From Candidatus Micrarchaeia archaeon (GTDB lineage: Archaea; Micrarchaeota; Micrarchaeia; Anstonellales; Bilamarchaeaceae): DNA of 64,000 nt. The stretch is from NCBI GenBank assembly GCA_046331685.1, contig JAXLQI010000002.1, positions 34,630 to 98,629 on the forward strand, in the 5' to 3' direction. Both the position numbers and the translations under genes were made by a program. Position 1 is the stretch's first letter. Every line of letters starts with the position of its first letter. Shown piece by piece: positions 4,583-60,870 of this stretch. The notes under the pieces are model-generated. The model saw only the letters and a list, made by a program, of their open reading frames with translations, was not told where the DNA came from and did no database searches.

Positions 4583-4583
4583 T

Positions 4584-4799
4584 GCTCCGTTCGTCTAGAC
4601 CGGTCAAGGATTATGGACTTTCATGCGCCTTTTGAAAAAAGGCGCCCCAAAACAGTCTGTTGCAAAACCCATCCGGGTTTTGGGCTCCCATACAGAGCCA
4701 TTTTTGCGAAAGCAAAAATTAGCAAGAATGTTTTTGGGCGCTTTTTACTAAAAAGCGCGAAGTCCTCCATCGACCTGGGTTCAAATCCCAGACGGAGCA
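4584..4799 (+). tRNA. tRNA-Glu(UUC) interrupted by a ~141-nt intron in the anticodon loop
   Basis: Acceptor GCTCCGT (4584-4590) pairs with ACGGAGC (4792-4798); discriminator A. D-arm has G.U wobbles as in archaeal tRNA-Glu. Anticodon stem ATGGA/TCCAT; loop CTTTCAT with anticodon TTC at 4620-4622. T-arm CTGGG-TTCAAAT-CCCAG. Intron is about 4625-4765. Folded by eye only. Confidence 0.7.
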
Positions 4800-4885
4800 A
4801 TCTTCCCCCATCAGCCACAGCACTCCCGAAACCTATCCGCTGAAATGCGATGCAATGATTATATTCCCCCTACGTCCTGAATCAG

Positions 4886-5836: not shown

Positions 5837-6009
5837 CCGAAACCCCGGCGGGGTTTGGCTACGCGAGGTTTTGGTGCACTTTTCAACAAACAAGTTTTGG
5901 TCAAATTTTTCCTAAAAGTTTGATGGGCTTCCGCTTGGCGTTTGTCGCCAAGATCGTCCATTTTCCTGAGCCAAAACGCAGACACAACCTGCAAACCCCA
6001 GTAAAATGG

Positions 6010-6290
6010 GCTTCCCGGTTTGCCTTGGCAGATATGCAAGGAGCCGCAACCGTCCACTCGATCCTGTTTCCCACAAGCACGGTACAAAACGCTTAGGGCT
6101 GCTCCTTTCGGCCTGACCCGGTTCACATGTCGCGCCGCCATATGAGGCAGGACGTCAACGCTTAAGGCTGAGGGCATGCATAAAAGACAAAACGCCCCGG
6201 GCTTTCGAGCCGCCTGAAGGGGATGTGCGGAATCGGGACCCCTAGCCCCGCTCTAGCCCATGATATATCTGCCGGCCCCTGTTTTTAATC
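6010..6290 (-). ncRNA. Candidate signal recognition particle (7S/SRP) RNA
   Basis: Minus strand at about 6097-6121 reads 'CCGGGTCAGGCCGAAAGGAGCAGCC', close to the conserved SRP helix-8 motif GUCAGG.CCGGAAGGAAGCAGCC. The presumed ends (plus 6263-6275 and 6026-6034) are complementary over 9 bp (GGCAGATAT/ATATCTGCC), as expected for terminal helix closure. The 450-bp gap has no convincing ORF. Confidence 0.45.
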
Positions 6291-10915: not shown

Positions 10916-11878
10916 CTAACACCGGACAACAATCTCGCCGTCCTTATCCTCTATCTTGACTGCGATTCTAGTATTTAATATGCTATCTTTTTTAAGCTCC
11001 ACGACGGTGGAAAGAGCGATGTCATCCGCCACCGCGACCCCAAGGAGCCTGAGGGCGTTCCCCCGGTCAAGCCTGACGAGCCTCCCGTCCACATCGAAGA
11101 TGGCCGACCCGCCCGCGCACTCCACCGACCTGATGGTGCCAAGGAGCATCTCGCTGCTCCTCCTCGAGAGCAGCCGGGCATCAGAGCCGAGCTCGATGTT
11201 CCCGTTCTTCACGACCGCCCCCTCGATGATCACCTCATCGCCCACCCTGAGCCTGCCGGCCCGGTCGGCTCCTCCGACCGCCACGCAACGGCGCTCGTCA
11301 TGGCCGTCCGAAAGCACGAAAGAGAACCCCCGGACCTTCACCCCGTCCCGGACGAACGTGTCATATCTCTCGATAGCGGTGACGAAGCCCCGCACATGCG
11401 CGACCTGGCCTTCCCCGAGGGCCGCAAGGGCGGTGAATCCAGCCTTCTCGGAGACGCTCAGGGATCCGCTGTAGCCGAGATGGAGCTCGCCGCCCTTCTC
11501 ATATGCCCCCCTCACGATGATCCTGTCTTTCACGCGGAGATTCCGCCCTAGCGAGACGTCCTCGTTCCAGAGGACCAGCGGCTTCGTTCCGCTCTCGTCA
11601 CCGACCGTCACCACGCGCGAGCGCTTTCCTGAGGAATACTCGGCGACCGGCCATATCTTCCTCACTTCAGCGTCGAAGGTCACCTTCTTCTCCCCCTTCG
11701 GGATCTCGCCCACCTTCCAAGCCTTCTCCTCGCTCCTCAGCAATCCCTTCTCCTTTGCGATCAGACGGAGAGCCACATCGCGCGTCAGGAAACCATGGAA
11801 CGAGCGTATCCTCTCCCCGATAAGGTGCTCGAGCTGGTCTTTGGGGATATCCTTCAGCAGCTCCTCCTCAAGGTCCAT
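10916..11878 (-). CDS. Hypothetical protein with internally repeated OB-fold-like modules, co-transcribed with cdc48
   Basis: 320 aa; 4-nt gap to cdc48 start; internally repeated 'VRG..V....G' beta-rich modules. Confidence 0.5.
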   Translation of the reverse strand: MDLEEELLKDIPKDQLEHLIGERIRSFHGFLTRDVALRLIAKEKGLLRSEEKAWKVGEIPKGEKKVTFDAEVRKIWPVAEYSSGKRSRVVTVGDESGTKPLVLWNEDVSLGRNLRVKDRIIVRGAYEKGGELHLGYSGSLSVSEKAGFTALAALGEGQVAHVRGFVTAIERYDTFVRDGVKVRGFSFVLSDGHDERRCVAVGGADRAGRLRVGDEVIIEGAVVKNGNIELGSDARLLSRRSSEMLLGTIRSVECAGGSAIFDVDGRLVRLDRGNALRLLGVAVADDIALSTVVELKKDSILNTRIAVKIEDKDGEIVVRC

Positions 11879-19917: not shown

Positions 19918-20065
19918 CCTAAAGCAGTTAAATTTGTGAATGGTTCATATAGTGAACTATTTTAATCCTTTCCGGCGGATCCACCACCTCGCCGGCTGCC
20001 TCGATCTCATGCTAGTGGCCGGTGCGCCGGTCGGGAAATCGTGGAAAATTCGCCTGGAGGGCGAA

Positions 20066-20925
20066 CCGGACAATAAAAATGCAGGAGGAAGACCCTCAGA
20101 GCAGCTCTGAAGCCTGACCTTTCCTTAGCGCCCTGATGTCAAAATTGGCATCAAGCAAAATATAGTCGTCTGCTGGTAATGAGGCATAGTGAATATAGTC
20201 AAGAACGAAACAATTATAAACATAAATTATCACAAAATAAACCATGCTACGAGTACCTCTAAATAAAGCAATTCCGACAACACCAAGGAGGACTCTTGAT
20301 TTTGCCTTGGCGCCAAAAGGGCTGAAGCCGAAATTAAATGGCTTTTGAAAAGTACAATGAAGGTACGGAAGCTCGGAGCGAACCTGCCGAGCTTGCAGAT
20401 TATTGGTTTTTTGAGACGGTCGTGAGGCTGCACCGGGGCGGGGAAGGGGCCCCATACACGGGATTGAACCCGGTGGTGCTCGGCGGAAGCCCGGCGCTGC
20501 GGGCAGAACGCTGCATCGAGAAAGGAGATCCGAAGGAAGTGGTAGCGTTCCTGCACGTCACTGGGGTACAGATGCAGCGGATGTTCAAGGAAGCGATGGT
20601 AAAGAAAAGAATTAGTGATGAAAATGATGTTGACGCCGCACGTGAATATGTAGAAGCGATGCTTGGCTTCATATTGTATTCCCATGGCCCGTACAAGTGG
20701 CGATAAAGAGCGGAGGCCCCATGGTGAAAAGGGGAAGGAGGAGAACGCGGAGGCCACAAGCATTGAGTTTAGGAAAGCGATCTGATATTCGTTTTTGTGG
20801 GCGCGCTGAACGTACCTATCGGTCGTGCCCCTTGCAAGCAGAATTCCGCCCAATGGTTACAGTCCTGAACCATTAGTGGTATGCAGAGGAAGGACTTCAG
20901 AGCTGCTCTGAGGTCTGACCTTGGC
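20066..20925. mobile_element. Remnant (~0.8 kb) of an older integrated element, bounded by degenerate copies of the tRNA-Leu 3' end
   Basis: Degenerate tRNA-3'-end-like copies at about 20066-20125 and 20870-20925. Both carry the palindrome 'CAGAGC(A/T)GCTCTG' and match the 3' exon of tRNA-Leu(CAA) at 25730-25775. GC content drops from about 20000. Confidence 0.5.
20338..20706 (+). CDS. Hypothetical protein inside the element remnant
   Basis: 122-aa ORF with protein-like composition; no family recognised. Confidence 0.3.
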   Translation: MAFEKYNEGTEARSEPAELADYWFFETVVRLHRGGEGAPYTGLNPVVLGGSPALRAERCIEKGDPKEVVAFLHVTGVQMQRMFKEAMVKKRISDENDVDAAREYVEAMLGFILYSHGPYKWR

Positions 20926-21157
20926 AATATCCACTGTCCGACATTGACTGTAGCGAGCGAGGCTACGTTTTGTTCTGTTTTTAGTTTCTTGATGGTAAAT
21001 TTTGCATAACTCGACTTCGGAAATCAGTTGGTAGGTATAAGATAACGGGATTACTAATATTAACTGTCTCGTCCAACCAAGTAAAAACTTCGGAACAATA
21101 AACAAAGTCAATGCAATACAAAGATGGTAAAGAAAACATATCAACTAAAGGTGCCTT

Positions 21158-21595
21158 TTAAACGAGACAAACCATGAACATTTCGAAGTATCTCAAATTA
21201 ATAAATAGAAAATACAGATACAATGTGGTAATGCTATCAGAAATGGGATATGATATAAAAAGGCAGAGATGATCACGCCTAGAATCGTTGGTGGGACGAT
21301 TGCAACCCAACTGCCCAAGATCACGGCTGACCACAGCCAGCAGCCCAGACGGAAAGAAGACTTGCAAGAAAAGGAATATGATAAGCAAAGGAGACGATAT
21401 CGAATAAATGACCAGAGAAGAAAAGGTATAACAATGTAAATAATCTAGGTAGCGTGCTTTGCCCCCAACCCGTTTACCAATGAAAAATATTAACCAAGGA
21501 AAAAAGGTATAATCACCAAAACTTGATAAATATGACAACGGTGCCCAGCATGACTTTGGAAAAATCCCCATAATCTGCACCTTGCGAGTATTCAT
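21158..21595 (-). CDS. Hypothetical small membrane protein in the low-GC element
   Basis: 145 aa; very hydrophobic (I/L/F-rich) with 3-4 TM-like segments. AT-rich codon usage, so it may be a spurious ORF. Confidence 0.3.
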   Translation of the reverse strand: MNTRKVQIMGIFPKSCWAPLSYLSSFGDYTFFPWLIFFIGKRVGGKARYLDYLHCYTFSSLVIYSISSPLLIIFLFLQVFFPSGLLAVVSRDLGQLGCNRPTNDSRRDHLCLFISYPISDSITTLYLYFLFINLRYFEMFMVCLV

Positions 21596-22774
21596 TCATT
21601 ATAAAAGGAAGACCTATTACCAATGCAAGAAATGAGGGAAACATTGCGGCACACTAGATTTCTTATGATGATAGACCAAGAGGCATTGGAAAGCTCTTTC
21701 TGACAAATCATTCATTTTGTTTGGGCGAAGAAAAGAATGAACAAATCCCATATTTGCATGGATGTGTATTAGTTGGTTGGGTAATTAAACCCTTCATAGA
21801 TCCCTCTTTTTTAAGCTCTGCTTCTCAGAACAGTACTCGGCGAGATGATCTTACTCTCGCATAAAATTTGTTATCGTAGCAGATGTGGCCTTCAGACCTG
21901 CGATCTGTTCTGAGTTCCTCAGGACAGACGAACTGGATCTGAGGTTCCCAAGCGGGTAAGATCTCAGACCAGATCTGAATGCAGGAGGGAAAACGCTGAG
22001 CCCAGGGCTCAGAACAGAGCCGTTCAAAGACCCGTCCGATTGGTTCGAAACTTCCCTCCCGTAATAACCATTTGGTTCAGGTCAGAACAGAGTCCCGTTT
22101 TGACCTCTCAACCGAGTGGCCGCTCTGGTTGGAGAGCTATATAAAGTTATGGCTCAACAATATTTTCTATGGCAAAACCAATAATTGAGGCTTGCAAACT
22201 GTCCCCGGCAACTCAAATTTGGGATTACAGCTGCCGTTGCATTGCGAAGTTCTGGGCTGAATTCTTCCGGGCTCTGTTAGAGGATTTATTCAAAGGAGTA
22301 CTGCTAATCTTTTATCCGATTGCTACCGCAGATTTTTTTACTGCTATCCTGGCCTCGGTTTTGCTATGCGATACTGCTTTTTTACCGGAAAATTACTTTA
22401 TGGCTTAAGAAAGTCAAAGTGTGATAAATATTAAGATATAACTGTCTGTGATGGCACGTGTGGCTTAAGGCCTGACTCCCCTCAATATTTCCTTTGAAAT
22501 TACTTTTGCCGCCCTTTCCCTGTCCCGGGAACCCGACTATGTCGATGGTCTGGGATGCGAGCTGTATCCCATCTGTCTTCTGCACCTCTTCAGGATGCGG
22601 CCGCTCAGTCGATTGAATGTCTGGCGCCTCAACCGACTTCGGCAACATAACGAATGCTCATCGATATCCAATTATCCGTCAGCTTGATGAATATCTGGGG
22701 TTCGACATCCTTCTGCTGGAAGAAGTATTTCTCTCCCATGCCGGCCAGTTCCTTCGAGGCTTTTTTCACGGTCT

Positions 22775-23450
22775 CTAGCGTTTCTTTCCTTGCAACGTCT
22801 GAAAAAGGGTTATGGCCTTTTCCAATCGCTGTCGTATGTCACTGAACCCAAATTTCATCCCAGATGAATTCATGGTCTTTAGCAGTATAGTTTTGTATAA
22901 TCCCTGAAATGACATGGCTATTCGGGATGATCGTGAGCCTGCCTGTAGCCTGGTCGCCTTCAATCCATTCCCTCGTCTCAAGCAATGTCGTGTAAAAGAT
23001 ACCTATATTGACAACATCCCCATAGACAGAGTCTATCTGGACGCGGTCTCCGACCGAATAAACCCGCGTGAGAAGGAGTATTGCGCCCCCCGCCATATTT
23101 TTAAAAACATCCTGAAGGGCTATTGCGATGGCCGCGGCAATGAGGCCGTATGCTACGAGAATTGCCTCCGGGTTAGGGATCCATATCGTTATCACGACTG
23201 CGATGACGACAATTGCATTGATGATGGAGACTATCCTTCGAAGCTCGAACTTCCTGCGGCTGTCCTTCACAGTCCCTGTGATGGCGTCTTCGACCACTAT
23301 CTTGAAGATGGCGTATACCACCGCCAATGCAGCGAAGGTGTAAAATGCTTTCAGAAGGTACTCATTCTGATATACTGAGTTCGCATACCAAAGAGCTGCG
23401 GATGCAATGAGCAGCCCTGTGAACACCAGAACCTTTCTGATTGAAATCAA
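22775..23450 (-). pseudogene. MscS-family mechanosensitive channel, C-terminally frameshifted or truncated
   Basis: ORF 22839..23450 has the MscS TM3 and beta-domain signature ('DRVQIDSVYGDVVNIGIFYTTLLE...IIPNS') but ends prematurely after '...EFIW'. The continuation ('GFSDIRQRLEKAI', compare E. coli 'YDSDIDQVKQIL') lies in another frame (ORF 22775..22981), then stops again. Confidence 0.5.
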
Positions 23451-23525
23451 ATTTACACCCTGGTTTCTTGGTCAGAAGAGAGGCACAACCAAAGTTTATA
23501 AAATATCGTGCGTAGCAGGTAAGAT

Positions 23526-23933
23526 GTGCCTATGTTCAAAGAGCGAGAAGGAACGAAAATGAGGAAGGTGATGCGGCGACCGGGCAGCCAGGTTGCCAGA
23601 AGACGGCCAGAAAATGTTAAAAGATGCATTTACTGCGGGAAACGCGTTGTCCGCTTTTTTTGGAAATATGGGAAGAAGATTTCGTGCTACTCCTGTCACT
23701 TTCGCCATGCTTCGAGCATAAAACGCAGTAAGAAGAAAATTTCTGGAAATCTTAAGCAAGATGATATGAATCGGAGTTTACGAAGGGCTGCGCGTCGCGA
23801 GTGGATTGTTCAGCCTGACCAGAGGGTTATTGAAAATCTTGAGGGTCCGGGTTCCGGTCCGCCAAAGCGCAGAAAACAGAGGCCGTTCAGAAAATTGCGC
23901 AATGCCTTGAAGATTGAGGGAATACAATACTGA
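23526..23933 (+). CDS. Small, highly basic Zn-ribbon protein
   Basis: 135 aa; pI clearly basic (many R/K); 'CIYCGKR...CYSCH' zinc-ribbon-like Cys pairs; inside the element. Confidence 0.4.
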   Translation: MPMFKEREGTKMRKVMRRPGSQVARRRPENVKRCIYCGKRVVRFFWKYGKKISCYSCHFRHASSIKRSKKKISGNLKQDDMNRSLRRAARREWIVQPDQRVIENLEGPGSGPPKRRKQRPFRKLRNALKIEGIQY

Positions 23934-24029
23934 TGGATTCAGACAGGATTGGCTGGCACAATAAAATAATAGATTCGCCTTTCTTGAATTACTGCGAGAG
24001 ATAGCGCCTAATTCTGCGATTTTCAAATA

Positions 24030-24340
24030 AATTTTGACCTGTATTTGGTCAAAATTATTTAAGGAAAGTTTTGAACTCGCTGTTTGACCTCACGCAGGGG
24101 TTCTCCGTGCAACCAAGATCATGAATGTCGTAATTCTGGAAAGTGCTTTCCCGTATGAAGGTCAAAAAGATATCGGATGGGCCTAGATAAAAATCATTTT
24201 GAGCCATTCTTGCATATCTCAAAGAGATGGCTTCTATCTCCTTGATTTCCACTCAAATTTTGACCTGTTTCTGGTCAAAATTTTTCGAGGAAAAATTTGA
24301 CCTAATGATTTTGACCTCATAGGTCAGAATGAAGCTGGCC
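24030..24340. repeat. Iteron-like array of TTTGACC half-sites, including two 33-bp near-identical palindromic units
   Basis: 'AAATTTTGACCTGTATTTGGTCAAAAT' at about 24036 and 'AAATTTTGACCTGTTTCTGGTCAAAAT' at about 24253. More TTTGACC/GGTCAAA copies at about 24085, 24300, 24313 and 24322 ('TTTGACCTCATAGGTCAGA'). Lies between the integrase 3' end and the Zn-ribbon gene. Confidence 0.6.
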
Positions 24341-24343
24341 CAT

Positions 24344-25561
24344 TCATTGAAAGCTATTGTTTAGCCCCATCTCGAAAATCTTGCGGAGCATCATGTCCTT
24401 GAACTCATTATCCTGCATCAGCCGGTTCATGATGCCATCGGTAGCTTGCCGGTCCTTCTCAAGAGAGAAGATAAGGTTCTCATCGAGAGGCAGACCGCAT
24501 TTAACGCAGTATTTGGAGGCTGGAGAGTTGTTCTCCTTGCAGCGCTGGCAGCTCTTGGCCTTGATTTTTTCCTCTTGGCTTACCTCGTCATGGGCAAGGC
24601 CTTGCAGCTTCAAGAGCGCATTATCCACGTCGCGCCCGCTCAGATGGACATACGTAGAAGCCATATCCGAACCTTGAACCCACCCAAAGTATTCTTTCAT
24701 CTGCGCCTCCGTGAGCTTTCCGGCCAGCGCCGTAGCTCTGGAGTGGCGGAAAAGATGGGGGTGGATATGCTTCTTTATGCCAGCCTTGTCTGCCAGATTC
24801 CGCAGGAGCTTATAGACTGAGCGGTGGTCCATGCACTGAATCATGTTCTTTGTCTTCCATTTCGCGCACTTGGGCGGCCAAAGTGGGGCGTTCGGCTCGT
24901 CCTTTCTTCGATAGTTATCGACCCATTGGGCCAAAGCGGGCGCAGAGCTGATTATCCTTACCCTTCTATCTCCTGTTTTGCCGGTAACCCTCAGGACTGC
25001 CCCGTATTGGTCGAATTTGACGTTTTGCATACTGAGGGTGAGTATTTCCCCTATCCGGCACCCGGATTCGTATAAAACCAATACAAACGCCTTATCCCTT
25101 GGGTTTTCGGCTTGGCTGACTATCCTAAGGACTTCGTCCTCTGTCAAAAGGTCTTCAGGCAGCTTGTGTTTCTCGTTTTTCAGCTTGGGTTTCAGCCAGC
25201 TTATCTCCGGCGGGAAAGTCTCATCGTTGCCTTTGAGCCACTTATAGAACATCTTAAGGACGATTTTGAAGTCAAGGCGGGTATATTCCGCGTATTTGGG
25301 GTTGTTTTCAAGTCCCCCGACCAAGGTAATGAGATCCTCCTTTGTGGCCTTTCCGAACGGCTTGTTTAGCCATCCTGCAAGGAATCTTAGGCAATATACG
25401 ACCTTTGCCACACGGCCATGAGTCGCCCCCTTCGCCAAGCGGATTTTAGAAAAAGCGATGATGCTTTCCTTGTTCTCTTTGCTAACCGCCCGGTCTTTAT
25501 TGAGGTTTTCTATCGCCAGTTCAAGACGCCTGGGATAGTTGTATAGACCAAATCCATCCAT
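24344..25561 (-). CDS. int: Tyrosine recombinase / phage-type integrase
   Basis: 405 aa; C-terminal catalytic domain with R...HxxR...Y ('HLFRHSRATAL...STYVHL'); N-terminal SAM-like domain; followed by a C-terminal Zn-ribbon-like extension (CQRC...C..C). Confidence 0.9.
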   Translation of the reverse strand: MDGFGLYNYPRRLELAIENLNKDRAVSKENKESIIAFSKIRLAKGATHGRVAKVVYCLRFLAGWLNKPFGKATKEDLITLVGGLENNPKYAEYTRLDFKIVLKMFYKWLKGNDETFPPEISWLKPKLKNEKHKLPEDLLTEDEVLRIVSQAENPRDKAFVLVLYESGCRIGEILTLSMQNVKFDQYGAVLRVTGKTGDRRVRIISSAPALAQWVDNYRRKDEPNAPLWPPKCAKWKTKNMIQCMDHRSVYKLLRNLADKAGIKKHIHPHLFRHSRATALAGKLTEAQMKEYFGWVQGSDMASTYVHLSGRDVDNALLKLQGLAHDEVSQEEKIKAKSCQRCKENNSPASKYCVKCGLPLDENLIFSLEKDRQATDGIMNRLMQDNEFKDMMLRKIFEMGLNNSFQ

Positions 25562-25729
25562 GTTTTCACTCCGGCTGGAGGTCTATTTTAGGGTTCCGAC
25601 AAATCGACGCTTCGATTTGTGGACCATTAAATTGCCCCCGTCTTTTTGCAGTTTCTGGGCAATTTAATTGGTCGTGCCCCTTTGGGCAGAATTCTGCCCA
25701 ATGGTTACAGACCCGAACCAAAAAGATGA

Positions 25730-25922
25730 TGCAGGAGGAAGGATTCGAACCTTCGAAGGCGCTGAGCCAACAGATCTCCCAAACCGCGTTTGGAAAGGGA
25801 AAATAACGCAGCTAATCCGGCCTCCTGAAACCTCTGGCTTTTCGCGGGCATTTTGCCCTTAGAAAAGCGGAGGTCAAAAGGCCCCTTGAGTCTGCCACGT
25901 TTGACCGCTTCGCTACTCCTGC
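25730..25922 (-). tRNA. tRNA-Leu(CAA), class II, interrupted by a ~109-nt intron
   Basis: Minus strand: acceptor GCAGGAG (comp. 25916-25922) pairs with CTCCTGC (comp. 25731-25737); discriminator A. Anticodon stem GCAGA/TCTGT (one G.U); loop CTCAAGA, anticodon CAA (comp. 25886-25888). 15-nt variable arm; T-arm GAAGG-TTCGAAT-CCTTC. Intron about 25776-25884. Its 3' exon is the sequence duplicated at the element boundaries. Confidence 0.65.
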
Positions 25923-26072
25923 AGAAAATTTCCTCCGGTTTGACTTCGGGTAAATTTTCTATCAACGCACCTGAACGACGATTCGTTCAAGGCGCAAAGG
26001 GAACGCAGTTCCCTTATGACTTCCTGAGATGAACTTAGGAATTATTGATAATGCGACTGAATAAAATAAAAG

Positions 26073-34363: not shown

Positions 34364-35164
34364 ATGGACAGGTCATATATCATTGAAGCCCAGATGAAAG
34401 AAGGCGCAGCCGAGAAACCGGTGATCGCGGTGGTGTTCATGAACACAGAGCCCGGAAAGGGATTGCTCGGCGATCTGGGGCTGCACTCGGTGTCAGCGGT
34501 CACCGAAGTCAGGCCCGAGTCCAGGCAGCCGACCGAACCGACGATGTATGCATATGATCGCACCAGTTCCCCGGGCTGCGTGCTTGTCACGAGATTCGAC
34601 TGGCAGGGCAAGGTCATCAACACGGCCCGCATCCACGGCGAGCCCCACTCCCTCATCCCCCCGGTCAGCGGGCAGGCGGCCGAGGATCTGCTCTATCTTC
34701 CCCAGGCATACGTGATCTCCGCATGCGTGAGGGATGGCCCGAGCCTGGATCCTGTCGTGGGGGTCCTATTCATCAAGCCGGCATACGGGGAGAAGACGCT
34801 GGCGCCGGACAAGAAATCGCTCTCAAGGATGGGCCTCGTCAATATCCAGAGCGTCGAACGGGTCGCTGTGGATTCGACCATCACCGGGACCGCGCTCTAC
34901 GTATTCGACCGGACGCCGTCAGCCTCAGAAGTCAGGGTATCGAGCCTGAATAACGACGGTACGATAGGTTCGACACGGGTGATCGAAGGACAACCCCATT
35001 CGATCATACCCCAGATAAAAGGGACCGCCGCCGACCGGTTCGTGAATCCGCGGAACGGCCTCGGAAAAAGCGATTTCCCTGCCAAGCCCGCATCCATCCC
35101 CCCGTCTTCACGCGATTCCAGGATCCCGCCAAGCCAGTTGCCATCCGGCTCGCGCAGGGCATGA
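34364..35164 (+). CDS. Hypothetical protein with an internal duplication
   Basis: 266 aa; repeated module 'HGEPHSLIPPVSGQAAEDL' / 'EGQPHSIIPQIKGTAADRF'; Pro/Ser-rich tail. Confidence 0.4.
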   Translation: MDRSYIIEAQMKEGAAEKPVIAVVFMNTEPGKGLLGDLGLHSVSAVTEVRPESRQPTEPTMYAYDRTSSPGCVLVTRFDWQGKVINTARIHGEPHSLIPPVSGQAAEDLLYLPQAYVISACVRDGPSLDPVVGVLFIKPAYGEKTLAPDKKSLSRMGLVNIQSVERVAVDSTITGTALYVFDRTPSASEVRVSSLNNDGTIGSTRVIEGQPHSIIPQIKGTAADRFVNPRNGLGKSDFPAKPASIPPSSRDSRIPPSQLPSGSRRA

Positions 35165-60712: not shown

Positions 60713-60870
60713 GCTGACGTCGCATAACCTGGTAGTGCGCCGGTCTTGAATCCCGCCTTTTAGTAAAAGGCGGGCCCAAAACTGGGTTGTTTGCGAACCC
60801 CATCGGGGTTTGCCAACTAACAAAAAAACCGGTCCCTTCGGGATCGCAGGTTCAAATCCTGCCGTCAGCG
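60713..60870 (+). tRNA. tRNA-Ser(UGA), class II, with a 76-nt intron in the anticodon loop
   Basis: Acceptor GCTGACG/CGTCAGC; discriminator G. D-arm GCAT-AACCTGGTA-GTGC. Anticodon stem CCGGT/ACCGG; loop CTTGAAA, anticodon TGA (60747-60749). 13-nt variable hairpin (TCCC-TTC-GGGA); T-arm GCAGG-TTCAAAT-CCTGC. Intron 60751-60826. Confidence 0.65.

Follow-up and report, generated by a model that had tools for sequence, protein, structure and literature searches.

This work concerns an intron-containing leucine tRNA gene, tRNA-Leu(CAA), and the putatively integrated DNA that adjoins it in a Micrarchaeota (DPANN) archaeon, Candidatus Micrarchaeia archaeon (assembly GCA_046331685.1). The DNA analysed, referred to below as the window, is the whole 64,000-nucleotide (nt) stretch of contig JAXLQI010000002.1 between positions 34,630 and 98,629; coordinates are counted from its first letter, and related loci from other genomes and contigs carry labels beginning with L. 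The tRNA locus comprises the following parts.

25730-25922, minus strand: tRNA-Leu(CAA) gene with no encoded CCA (Rfam, intron-aware ARAGORN and synteny).
25923-25960, minus strand: conserved 5′ flank of the tRNA (sequence identity to relatives).
25885-25922, minus strand: 5′ exon of 38 nt, GCAGGAGTAGCGAAGCGGTCAAACGTGGCAGACTCAAG (strand reading; 92-100% BLAST identity to orthologues).
25776-25884, minus strand: intron of 109 nt between positions 37 and 38 (parsing and folding).
25730-25775, minus strand: 3′ exon of 46 nt, ATCTGTTGGCTCAGCGCCTTCGAAGGTTCGAATCCTTCCTCCTGCA (strand reading and orthologue alignment).
25775-25890, minus strand: core of the motif called bulge-helix-bulge, BHB (conserved pairing and constrained folding).

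The gene matches the Rfam tRNA family RF00005 end to end, from 25922 to 25730 and over model positions 1-71, at 40.1 bits where the gathering score is 29; the alignment accommodates about 112 nt of inserted sequence in the anticodon loop, after CUCA. ARAGORN in its default mode detects no tRNA at the locus, and with introns allowed it recovers the gene with a 109-nt intron, one of three tRNAs that this mode finds. The 5′ exon supplies the 5′ strand of the acceptor stem, the D arm, the 5′ strand of the anticodon stem, and the loop nucleotides C32-U33-C34-A35-A36-G37, and the 3′ exon supplies A38, the 3′ strand of the anticodon stem, a long variable arm, the T arm, the 3′ strand of the acceptor stem, and A73. 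Read in this way, the spliced product is 84 nt long and shows CAA as its anticodon, G at position 37, a long variable arm, a T arm of canonical form, and A73 as discriminator; a T5 run lies 6 nt downstream of the tRNA 3′ end. Upstream, the segment 25960-25885 is 92% identical to L011 and 88% identical to both L001 and L004, and the flank at 25923-25960 is probably the tRNA promoter.

A sequence-only reading of this stretch had proposed a tRNA-Leu(CAA) at 25730-25922, with CTCCTGC at 25916-25922 of the plus strand as the acceptor partner of the 3′ end and a 109-nt intron at 25776-25884 between positions 37 and 38. The gene is borne out by the Rfam match, the CAA anticodon, the long variable arm, and A73; CTCCTGC, when reverse-complemented, reads GCAGGAG, the 5′ strand of the acceptor; and exon parsing and the BHB core agree on the intron. 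The spliced product, put at 85 nt in that reading, comes to 84 nt when parsed. Its leucine identity, as read from the sequence, lies in the CAA anticodon, the long variable arm, and A73. In archaea, A73 is the rule for leucine tRNAs and G73 for serine tRNAs; A73 is present in all 14 orthologues, and the window's own tRNA-Ser(TGA), at 60713-60870, carries G73.

Both intron boundaries are placed by the BHB core. In its central helix, 25890-25887 (CUCA) pairs with 25781-25778 (UGGG), forming C32-G, U33·G, C34-G, and A35-U pairs with intron nucleotides n-2 to n-5; in the canonical archaeal/eukaryal geometry, the partner of position 32 is the intron base that lies three nucleotides ahead of the 3′ splice site. 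The two bulges, of 3 nt each, consist of A36-G37-G(i1) at 25886-25884 and A(n-1)-G(n)-A38 at 25777-25775, and each splice site falls after the second bulge nucleotide, giving the canonical geometry of two 3-nt bulges with a helix of 4 base pairs (bp) between them. A BHB motif at the junctions, on which the sequence-only reading had made its intron depend, is thus present, and it is conserved in 14 of 14 orthologous sequences parsed for it: all keep the CUCA/UGGG helix and both bulges, the sole exception being an A·C pair in L012.

Outside this core, the helix termed h is the anticodon stem, which is present, and a possible outer helix h′ (GGCC/GGUU) consists of two G·U and two G-C pairs; in the orthologues h′ ranges from 0 to 4 bp. 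The intron itself has two hairpins, a large one on the 5′ side (25883-25819) and another on the 3′ side (25813-25782); folded in isolation, it reaches -47.5 kcal/mol and is significantly structured relative to shuffles (z = -3.5). Forcing the strict outer helix yields -61.1 kcal/mol, 13.6 worse than the fold in which the intron forms two hairpins, and the best precursor fold with the cloverleaf and the BHB core enforced has -74.7 kcal/mol. Because the outer helix is weak and costly to force, the motif is best described as relaxed, with the 5′ site modelled beside a three-way junction. The hairpin CGCTTTTCTAAGGGCAAAATGCCCGCGAAAAGC cited in the sequence-only reading does lie inside the intron, and the GC-clamped hairpins that it saw as common to the other two tRNA introns of the window are found there as well, the Glu intron having hairpins of the T-run/A-run type, as in the Leu and Ser introns.

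The register of splicing bears directly on the identity of the tRNA, since the gene would be tRNA-Ser(CGA) if both splice sites lay 3 nt further 5′, between C34 and A35 and between G(n-3) and G(n-2). Either register removes 109 nt and leaves a 7-nt loop, and serine tRNAs too have long variable arms; ARAGORN with introns allowed indeed reports tRNA-Ser(cga) i(37,109) at c[25728,25923], and repeats the Ser(cga) call for L006, L009, L010, and L011. The serine register, however, would put both cuts inside the conserved 4-bp helix rather than in the 3-nt bulges, and it conflicts with A73 in all 14 orthologues as against G73 in the window's tRNA-Ser, as well as with the Rfam alignment, in which the insertion follows CUCA. 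Furthermore, ARAGORN is inconsistent across the orthologues, naming Leu (caa) in L005, Gln in L004, Pro in L012, and Arg in L013, and it was therefore not used as the arbiter of the register. We consider the serine assignment very improbable and treat the gene as tRNA-Leu(CAA).

Comparison with relatives was based on the neighbouring gene for an Obg-like GTPase, which as a query retrieved 23 loci from a genome collection, the 16 closest being from Candidatus Micrarchaeota. The gene order GTPase-CutA-Pop5-methyltransferase-ferredoxin-tRNA is retained in at least 13 genomes, and the tRNA exons are 91-100% identical in at least 13 Micrarchaeota loci from species with protein identities of 50-90%. 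Across the orthologues, the 37/38 intron measures 30, 37, 40, 43, 54, 83, 107-111, or 120 nt; its 3′ end, TGGGAR, is shared, while the remaining intron sequence varies freely. Additional introns occur in the D-loop (L002, L004, and L012), the variable arm (L013), and the T-loop (L002, L008, L022, and L025), amounting to one to three introns per gene at four positions (D-loop, 37/38, variable arm, and T-loop). One module of about 30 nt, GGCAAAAGGGCTTCACCCCAAAACCCTGAG, turns up in introns at three different places, at 37/38 in L013, in the D-loop in L004, and in the T-loop in L022, with 93-96% identity among the copies, which suggests that intron sequence may move between positions.

When these introns are removed, 14 loci, namely the window and 13 orthologues (L002, L004-L006, L008-L012, L022, L024, L025, and L040), splice to a cloverleaf of identical size, 84 nt. 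L007 and L013 were left out of this set, their extra interruptions not being boundable (in L013 the bounds of the variable-arm intron are ambiguous), and the set parsed for the BHB motif is partly different. The 14 loci give 11 distinct spliced sequences, in which 99.2% of the cloverleaf cells are paired, with three compensatory pairs (6-67, 27-43, and 28-42) against 0.7 expected; none of 500 shuffles reaches this number, and no slid register comes close. These data speak to whether the locus could be a dead pseudo-tRNA or a fragment left by mobile elements, its 109-nt intron being inserted junk. That mobile DNA adjoins the gene, that the minimum free energy (MFE) fold of the precursor is not a cloverleaf, and that default tRNA finders miss the gene would all fit such a fragment; however, the exons are conserved far beyond the proteins of the same species, the stems show compensatory changes, the splice helix and bulges are kept while the rest of the intron is free to vary, and the upstream flank and the synteny in at least 13 genomes are conserved. 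Because the 84-nt cloverleaf is 99.2% paired with three compensatory pairs and no shuffle comes close, we regard a pseudo-tRNA as ruled out for practical purposes, and as the least probable of the readings weighed here.

Two known classes of intron were examined for the 109-nt sequence and set aside. Group I introns have been reported in archaea, including Micrarchaeota (PMC6125680), and such an intron is rejected here, with no Rfam match at E ≤ 1 and a length of 109 nt as against the at least ~200 nt needed. An Rfam scan of the intron at E ≤ 1 matched no family, snoRNA, sRNA, and group I models included, and by reading of the sequence the 109 nt contain neither a C box (RUGAUGA) nor a D box (CUGA), so the candidate of a box C/D guide-RNA intron was likewise rejected, no guide function being indicated. 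The tRNA-Trp intron of Haloferax volcanii, about 105 nt long, resembles the window intron in its length of ~100 nt, its place in an archaeal anticodon loop, and its BHB motif. Unlike the window intron, which lacks both boxes, it carries a box C/D guide RNA (PMC4090602).

In the precursor, C32-A35 of the anticodon loop would pair with UGGG near the 3′ end of the intron, a pairing that would set both splice sites in 3-nt bulges with a 4-bp helix between them. The archaeal splicing endonuclease would then cut at the bulges and an RtcB-type ligase join the exons into the 84-nt tRNA, CCA being added later. These enzymes are assigned by analogy within the phylum, and the endonuclease of this lineage is presumably of the broad-specificity epsilon2 type. 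In the micrarchaeote ARMAN-2 (Candidatus Micrarchaeum acidiphilum; Fujishima et al. 2011, PMC3239211; Hirata et al. 2012, PMC3488258), 56% of tRNAs are disrupted, and the epsilon2 endonuclease cleaves both strict and relaxed BHB motifs (PMC3239211). For Micrarchaeota, tRNAs with several introns and BHB introns of great length are already on record (PMC3239211). The window gene and its orthologues resemble that system in phylum, in introns at 37/38, the D-loop, and the T-loop, and in the use of strict and relaxed motifs, and they reach three introns per gene, the maximum reported for archaea in PMC3239211. They differ from the ARMAN-2 work in that the window intron has 109 nt, compared with the 13-25-nt substrates tested there, and in that its 5′ splice site is predicted beside a three-way junction rather than a simple outer helix.

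The 3′ end of the tRNA marks one edge of a low-GC island, whose junction features, with the integrase, are listed below from the tRNA outward.

20080-25743, strand not applicable: composite low-GC island, read as two to three element remnants in tandem (GC dip and four cores in the same orientation).
25730-25743, minus strand: putative attachment (att) core copy 1, which forms positions ~60-73 of the intact tRNA and reads TCCTTCCTCCTGCA along its strand (junction alignment).
25670-25729, minus strand: tRNA-proximal element arm, a 9-nt variable spacer (25729-25721) and the 51-nt block B (repeat and relatives' identity).
24344-25561, minus strand: intact tyrosine integrase of 405 residues with a C-terminal zinc ribbon (Pfam, PHROG, and structure match).
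22042-22083, plus strand: inverted, diverged copy of the tRNA-element junction, with T arm, acceptor, spacer, and start of block B (inverted repeat I1).
21980-21988, minus strand: core copy 4, CCTCCTGCA on the tRNA strand, an internal island junction (homology to L005 and L034).
21956-21979, minus strand: arm TTCAGATCTGGTCTGAGATCTTAC beside core copy 4 (homology; inverted repeat read by eye).
20895-20922, no strand assigned: hairpin arm CTTCAGAGCTGCTCTGAGGTCTGACCTT, which adjoins core copy 2 on its element side (repeat D2).
20882-20894, minus strand: core copy 2, TCCTTCCTC-TGCA with a 1-nt deletion (junction alignment).
20821-20881, minus strand: second copy of spacer and block B, a distal remnant (85% identity to L012 4546-4617).
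20093-20198, no strand assigned: distal arm of the putatively oldest remnant, a hairpin and the palindrome GATGTCAAAATTGGCATC (L073 homology).
20080-20092, minus strand: core copy 3, CTTCCTCCTGCA, followed by the native T-run TTTTTATTG; distal island boundary (junction alignment and L073/L009 homology).

GC content is 0.38-0.50 across the island (roughly 20000-26000) versus 0.56-0.62 in the flanks, the drop starting from a level of about 0.58-0.60. In the orientation of the tRNA, the layout begins with the tRNA and core 1, followed by block B, the integrase, and ~3.7 kb of element DNA up to core 4; a segment of ~1.1 kb, the hairpin arm, and core 2 come next, and then a second block B with ~0.8 kb, another hairpin arm, core 3, and the chromosome. 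The identity of the tRNA 3′ end to the distal copies, all in the same orientation, begins sharply and is limited to 9-14 nt; the flanks on the T-arm side of the three distal cores are unlike the tRNA, and the flanks of two of them resemble each other. The duplicated core is thereby supported as the last 12-14 nt of the gene, made up of the T-stem 3′ strand, the acceptor 3′ strand, and A73. The sequence-only reading, which had let the tRNA double as the attachment site and equated the duplicated core with the 3′ exon, is correct in placing the core inside that exon, whereas its extent is the 12-14-nt tip and not the whole 46 nt. Its further point that integration leaves the intron undisturbed holds, the core being 3′ of every intron position used in this tRNA, and the use of the gene by integrated elements agrees with the adjoining integrase, the repeated cores, the shared arms, the GC dip, and the same tRNA in relatives.

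The arms next to the cores are repeated within the island and beyond it. Block B directly follows the core at 25670-25720 and at 20821-20872, the two copies being 91% identical, with 20838-20872 as the matched part of the second, and the first of them, which holds the palindrome GGGCAGAATTCTGCCC at 25684-25699, is 94% identical to L012 4568-4617 and 86% identical to L040, with an analogous palindrome in L024 and L025. The 9-nt spacer between core and block B is wholly different among otherwise near-identical elements. The hairpin arm at 20895-20922 is 84% identical to one within 20085-20121, and the arm at 21956-21979 is, by eye, an inverted repeat of it at ~20 of 25 positions. Inverted repeat I1 spans 42 nt and is 74% complementary to 25710-25751. 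This inverted junction copy lies ~60 nt from a forward core, and the same arrangement precedes an integrase in an unrelated contig (L034 8560-8685). The segment 21980-22146 (165 nt; also L034 8521-8685) was considered as a cryptic tRNA and rejected, its T arm being unpaired and the Rfam scan empty; it is read as a remnant of an inverted junction. Short repeats of the TCTGAG type occur in both orientations near every core copy (21892-21979, 20895-20922, and 20093-20121) and also past the core in L005, L022, and L034, and they are candidate integrase binding sites.

The integrase reading frame is on the strand of the tRNA and begins 168 nt past it. It matches PF00589 (1.7e-20; 74 bits, the cut-off being 27.1) and integrase families of PHROG at 2.8e-26, and its closest solved structure is Pyrococcus abyssi XerA (3e-15), with CRIGE (Arg I) and HLFRH (HxxR) aligned; the catalytic tyrosine was read by eye in STYVHL. 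Alignment with L024 over residues 1-405 indicates a single unsplit open reading frame (ORF). Two other identities were discarded: XerA, the enzyme of chromosome dimer resolution, for which NF040815 scores 99 bits against a cut-off of 220, and a partitioning integrase of the SSV1 type, the gene being intact and not split by integration. The integrase is further set apart from XerA by an additional N-terminal domain, by the zinc ribbon at its C-terminus, and by its position next to a tRNA in a low-GC island. No relative of the integrase was found in IMG/VR.

Other contigs provide homologous integrases at the same tRNA. The integrase of L012 is 99% identical in protein and 96-99% in nucleotide sequence, compared with 65-88% nucleotide identity for the flanking host genes, and it sits behind block B at tRNA-Leu(CAA), as in the window. 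In single figures, the integrase gene is 97% identical and the host genes are about 75% identical. Those of L040 (88%) and of L024 and L025 (73%) are likewise at tRNA-Leu(CAA), and thus the four closest integrases with upstream sequence all adjoin this gene, with differing intron sets: the tRNA-Leu(CAA) intron has 43 nt in L040, 111 nt in L024, and 108 nt in L025, where a T-loop intron is also present. Since the element arms of L024 and L025 are identical despite this T-loop intron, which is 15 nt from the 3′ end, the exchanged segment can be at most 15 nt long, matching the 12-14 nt of the window.

Moreover, every junction in the window is homologous to a core-containing junction elsewhere (L012, L005, L034, and L073). 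The segment 21956-21988 is 94% identical to the tRNA 3′ end and downstream flank of L005; 21980-22146 is 70% identical to an L034 segment that ends in a core right before an integrase; 20079-20198 shares 79.5% identity with L073 114-235, a stretch that has a core at its end and lies between two integrase genes; and CTCCTGCATTTTTATT is identical to the downstream junction of L009. It is these shared flanks and homologous junctions that make the core copies significant. In L073, the counterpart of 20093-20198 is the upstream region of an integrase gene, which is missing in the window copy: the L073 homology ends at the start codon, and a tblastn search for a decayed integrase in the distal remnant gave a best E of 0.077, at 22110-22172, which is insignificant, so this claim was dropped.

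The region downstream of the tRNA differs in every relative, L008 for example having 2.3 kb inserted at the same site relative to L009. A hairpin (CTTGAAC..GTTCAAG) is found 50-80 nt after the tRNA 3′ end in L009 (15158-15210), L010 (13509-13590), L011 (14736-14790), L013 (13970-14070), and L008 (6270-6330), with a compensatory form, TTGGAC/GTCCAA, in L013. After it, the tRNA 3′ end occurs a second time, together with a T-run, and in L010 this copy comprises 13 nt with a lineage-specific base; in L008, an inserted block containing toxin-antitoxin-like ORFs precedes the unit, which is found 2.3 kb downstream. The hairpin and 3′-end copy may be either the footprint of deleted elements or a native terminator.

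Across the wider integrase family, a same-strand tRNA ends 90-260 nt before the integrase start in 24 of the 63 metagenomic relatives with enough upstream sequence, and these 24 tRNAs are mostly intron-containing and decode many amino acids. By our own estimate from tRNA density, less than 1% would be expected by chance. A T-arm regular expression and the Rfam tRNA model, applied upstream of the integrase loci scored as having no tRNA, found almost no further tRNAs, and adjacency to a tRNA in this family is frequent, not universal. In L097, a pair of left and right attachment sites (attL and attR), spanning -11 to +22 relative to the end of an intron-less tRNA-Leu(CAA), lies 5.4 kb apart; among core repeats sought downstream of related integrases, only this case is clear, contigs or cores mostly being too short.

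The island might instead have arisen without integrase recombination, either as a variable chromosomal region or, for the 1.1 kb at 20895-21979, as a transposon-like unit with terminal inverted repeats and a target duplication of ~9 bp. That segment is indeed bounded by inverted copies of a ~25-nt arm and flanked by CCTCCTGCA and CCTC-TGCA, and it can be added on this side that the core matches are near chance, that no empty site is seen, and that many family members have no adjacent tRNA. On the other hand, inverted arms just inside directly repeated cores resemble the core-type binding sites of tyrosine recombinases, which appear in this arrangement at attL and attR, and in L073 and L034 the same arms lie beside genes for integrases of this family. 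No transposase was found in the ORFs scanned from the island, a near-identical integrase and arm occupy the same tRNA position in L012 and L040, and a tRNA adjoins the integrase in 24 of 63 loci, far more than the estimated less than 1%. An origin independent of the integrase therefore appears unlikely, although less so than the serine or pseudo-tRNA readings.

Under integrase-mediated recombination, the last 12-14 bp of the tRNA gene would serve as the core of the chromosomal attachment site (attB) for a family of tyrosine-integrase elements, and each integration would restore the tRNA end from element DNA and displace the old core downstream. Before integration, at an empty attB, the tRNA core would have been joined directly to TTTTTATTGTCC. 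The anatomy suggests that the window holds at least two, probably three, successive integrations, in which the newest unit would adjoin the tRNA with its integrase intact and the two distal units would be gutted, integrase-less remnants. Intron and integration would not interfere with each other, since all intron positions used in this tRNA are 5′ of the core.

Taken together, we put the probability at roughly 85% that the locus is a genuine, functional tRNA-Leu(CAA) gene which is interrupted at the canonical site, 37/38, by a 109-nt intron and whose final 12-14 bp form the attB core of tyrosine-integrase elements. Several points weigh against this interpretation. On the side of the tRNA, the analysis covered the window, and a second tRNA-Leu(CAA) may exist elsewhere in the genome; ARAGORN favours serine; the weak outer helix of the BHB motif competes with a much stronger hairpin inside the intron; and the unconstrained precursor MFE of -81.1 kcal/mol corresponds to neither the BHB nor the cloverleaf fold (-74.7). 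On the side of the island, the core is too short to stand alone, with 8 matches at up to 2 mismatches against 2.4 expected, and simple tandem integration accounts neither for the inverted junction copy nor for the arms that bracket the 1.1-kb segment in inverted orientation. That integration took place is deduced from anatomy and comparison, and neither a circular attP junction nor an empty site was seen; no empty attB was found in the fetched loci, which contain no nucleotide homologue of the left (MarR-side) flank, and exact-match look-ups of three window proteins gave no hit. Some 60% of the integrase relatives have no recognisable upstream tRNA, and profile scans detected no replication, capsid, or transfer genes among the genes of the window element.

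Given the lack of replication and transfer genes, the window element may no longer be mobile. Further features of the element and its island are listed here.

23977-24303, no strand assigned: two direct repeats of ~100 nt with TTTTGACC..GGTCAAAA palindromes, inside the element.
22839-23450, minus strand: MscS-like channel fragment of 203 residues (PF00924, 9.7e-14).
20338-20706, plus strand: DUF6448 protein (3.5e-26).

The two direct repeats (23977-24077 and 24203-24303) are 73% identical, have a homologous stretch after the L033 integrase (11607-11744), and look like an origin or iterons. A larger relative is the island at 11200-19500 of L025, whose integrase is 73% identical to that of the window and whose GC content is 0.40-0.50 compared with 0.55-0.59 in the host; it encodes an Lrp/AsnC regulator, an Orc1/Cdc6-like AAA+ protein, a VirB4/TraG/HerA-like ATPase of 779 residues, and a PrgI-like protein, and looks like an integrated conjugative plasmid of a Micrarchaeota host. 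By virtue of its Orc1/Cdc6-like, VirB4/TraG-like, and PrgI-like genes, intact relatives of the window element appear to be integrated conjugative plasmids. Matches to the RT-16 RNA (RF03019) were seen a few kb from integrases of the family in L092 (6831-6970) and L037 (12208-12453), at 87 and 58 bits, respectively.

Three further RNA genes were identified in the window. A tRNA-Glu(TTC) at 4583-4800 on the plus strand, recovered by ARAGORN with introns allowed and missed by the Rfam gathering scan, contains a 141-nt intron. The plus-strand tRNA-Ser(TGA) at 60713-60870 (Rfam 43.8 bits; G73) has an intron of 76-78 nt, in which CCCGCCTTTTAGTAAAAGGCGGG is followed by CCCAAAACTGGG, a two-unit pattern also present in the D-loop intron of L002. 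On the minus strand, the signal recognition particle (SRP) RNA at 6006-6261 is best matched by the bacterial large SRP model (66.5 bits) despite the archaeal host, a lower-scoring overlapping match of the same clan being suppressed.

Integration at tRNA genes, intron-containing targets in Thaumarchaeota, tandem arrays, and integrase-less remnants have been reviewed for archaea (Badel et al. 2021, PMC8371274). The window element resembles the non-partitioning integrases of the pNOB8 type (PMC8371274) in that the integrase is intact beside a regenerated tRNA and direct repeats of its 3′ part flank the element, and also in its tandem arrays, integrase-less remnants, and larger relatives with Orc1/Cdc6-like and VirB4/TraG-like genes. 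It differs from them in a Xer-like R...HxxR...Y signature instead of YxxR and in a tRNA overlap of just 12-14 nt. With the fusellovirus SSV1 it shares a tRNA gene as attB and a site-specific tyrosine recombinase; unlike SSV1, in which integration splits the integrase (PMC8371274), the window integrase is intact, and the shared stretch of the tRNA is just the final 12-14 nt.

Two hypotheses link tRNA introns with mobile elements: introns would protect attB sites (Randau and Soll 2008, as summarised in PMC4090602), or attP would deliver introns (Sugahara et al. 2012, PMC3293823). In keeping with both, an intron-rich tRNA gene is here also an integration hot spot. However, as the core lies 3′ of all intron positions, the window intron neither blocks integration nor is deliverable by it, and the 12-14-nt exchanged segment is too short to deliver an intron at 37/38, in contrast to the proposal of Sugahara et al. 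Tentatively, and with considerable doubt, the tRNA-Leu(CAA) gene may record an arms race between introns and integrases, in which the integrases would have retreated to a 12-14-nt core, the only part of the gene that has every intron position seen in these loci on its 5′ side. If the gain of introns was due to their disrupting longer attB sites, as in the proposal of Randau and Soll, the locus would be a natural test case and would also show integrase escape.

Both the BHB intron and the integration at a tRNA are ordinary, well-known archaeal biology; what is specific to this case is the host phylum, the Xer-like HxxR signature, and the very short core at the 3′ tip. Standard tRNA finders overlook or mislabel the genuine tRNA-Leu(CAA) of this locus, which is accompanied by a small composite island. 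The locus adds a Micrarchaeota/DPANN example for a phylum whose integrative elements are hardly described; the words DPANN and Micrarchaeota are absent from the archaeal recombinase review (PMC8371274). For the debated connection between tRNA introns and mobile elements, it also provides a comparative set of 14 orthologues with one to three introns each and 291 integrase relatives, including the same element in hosts with different intron sets.

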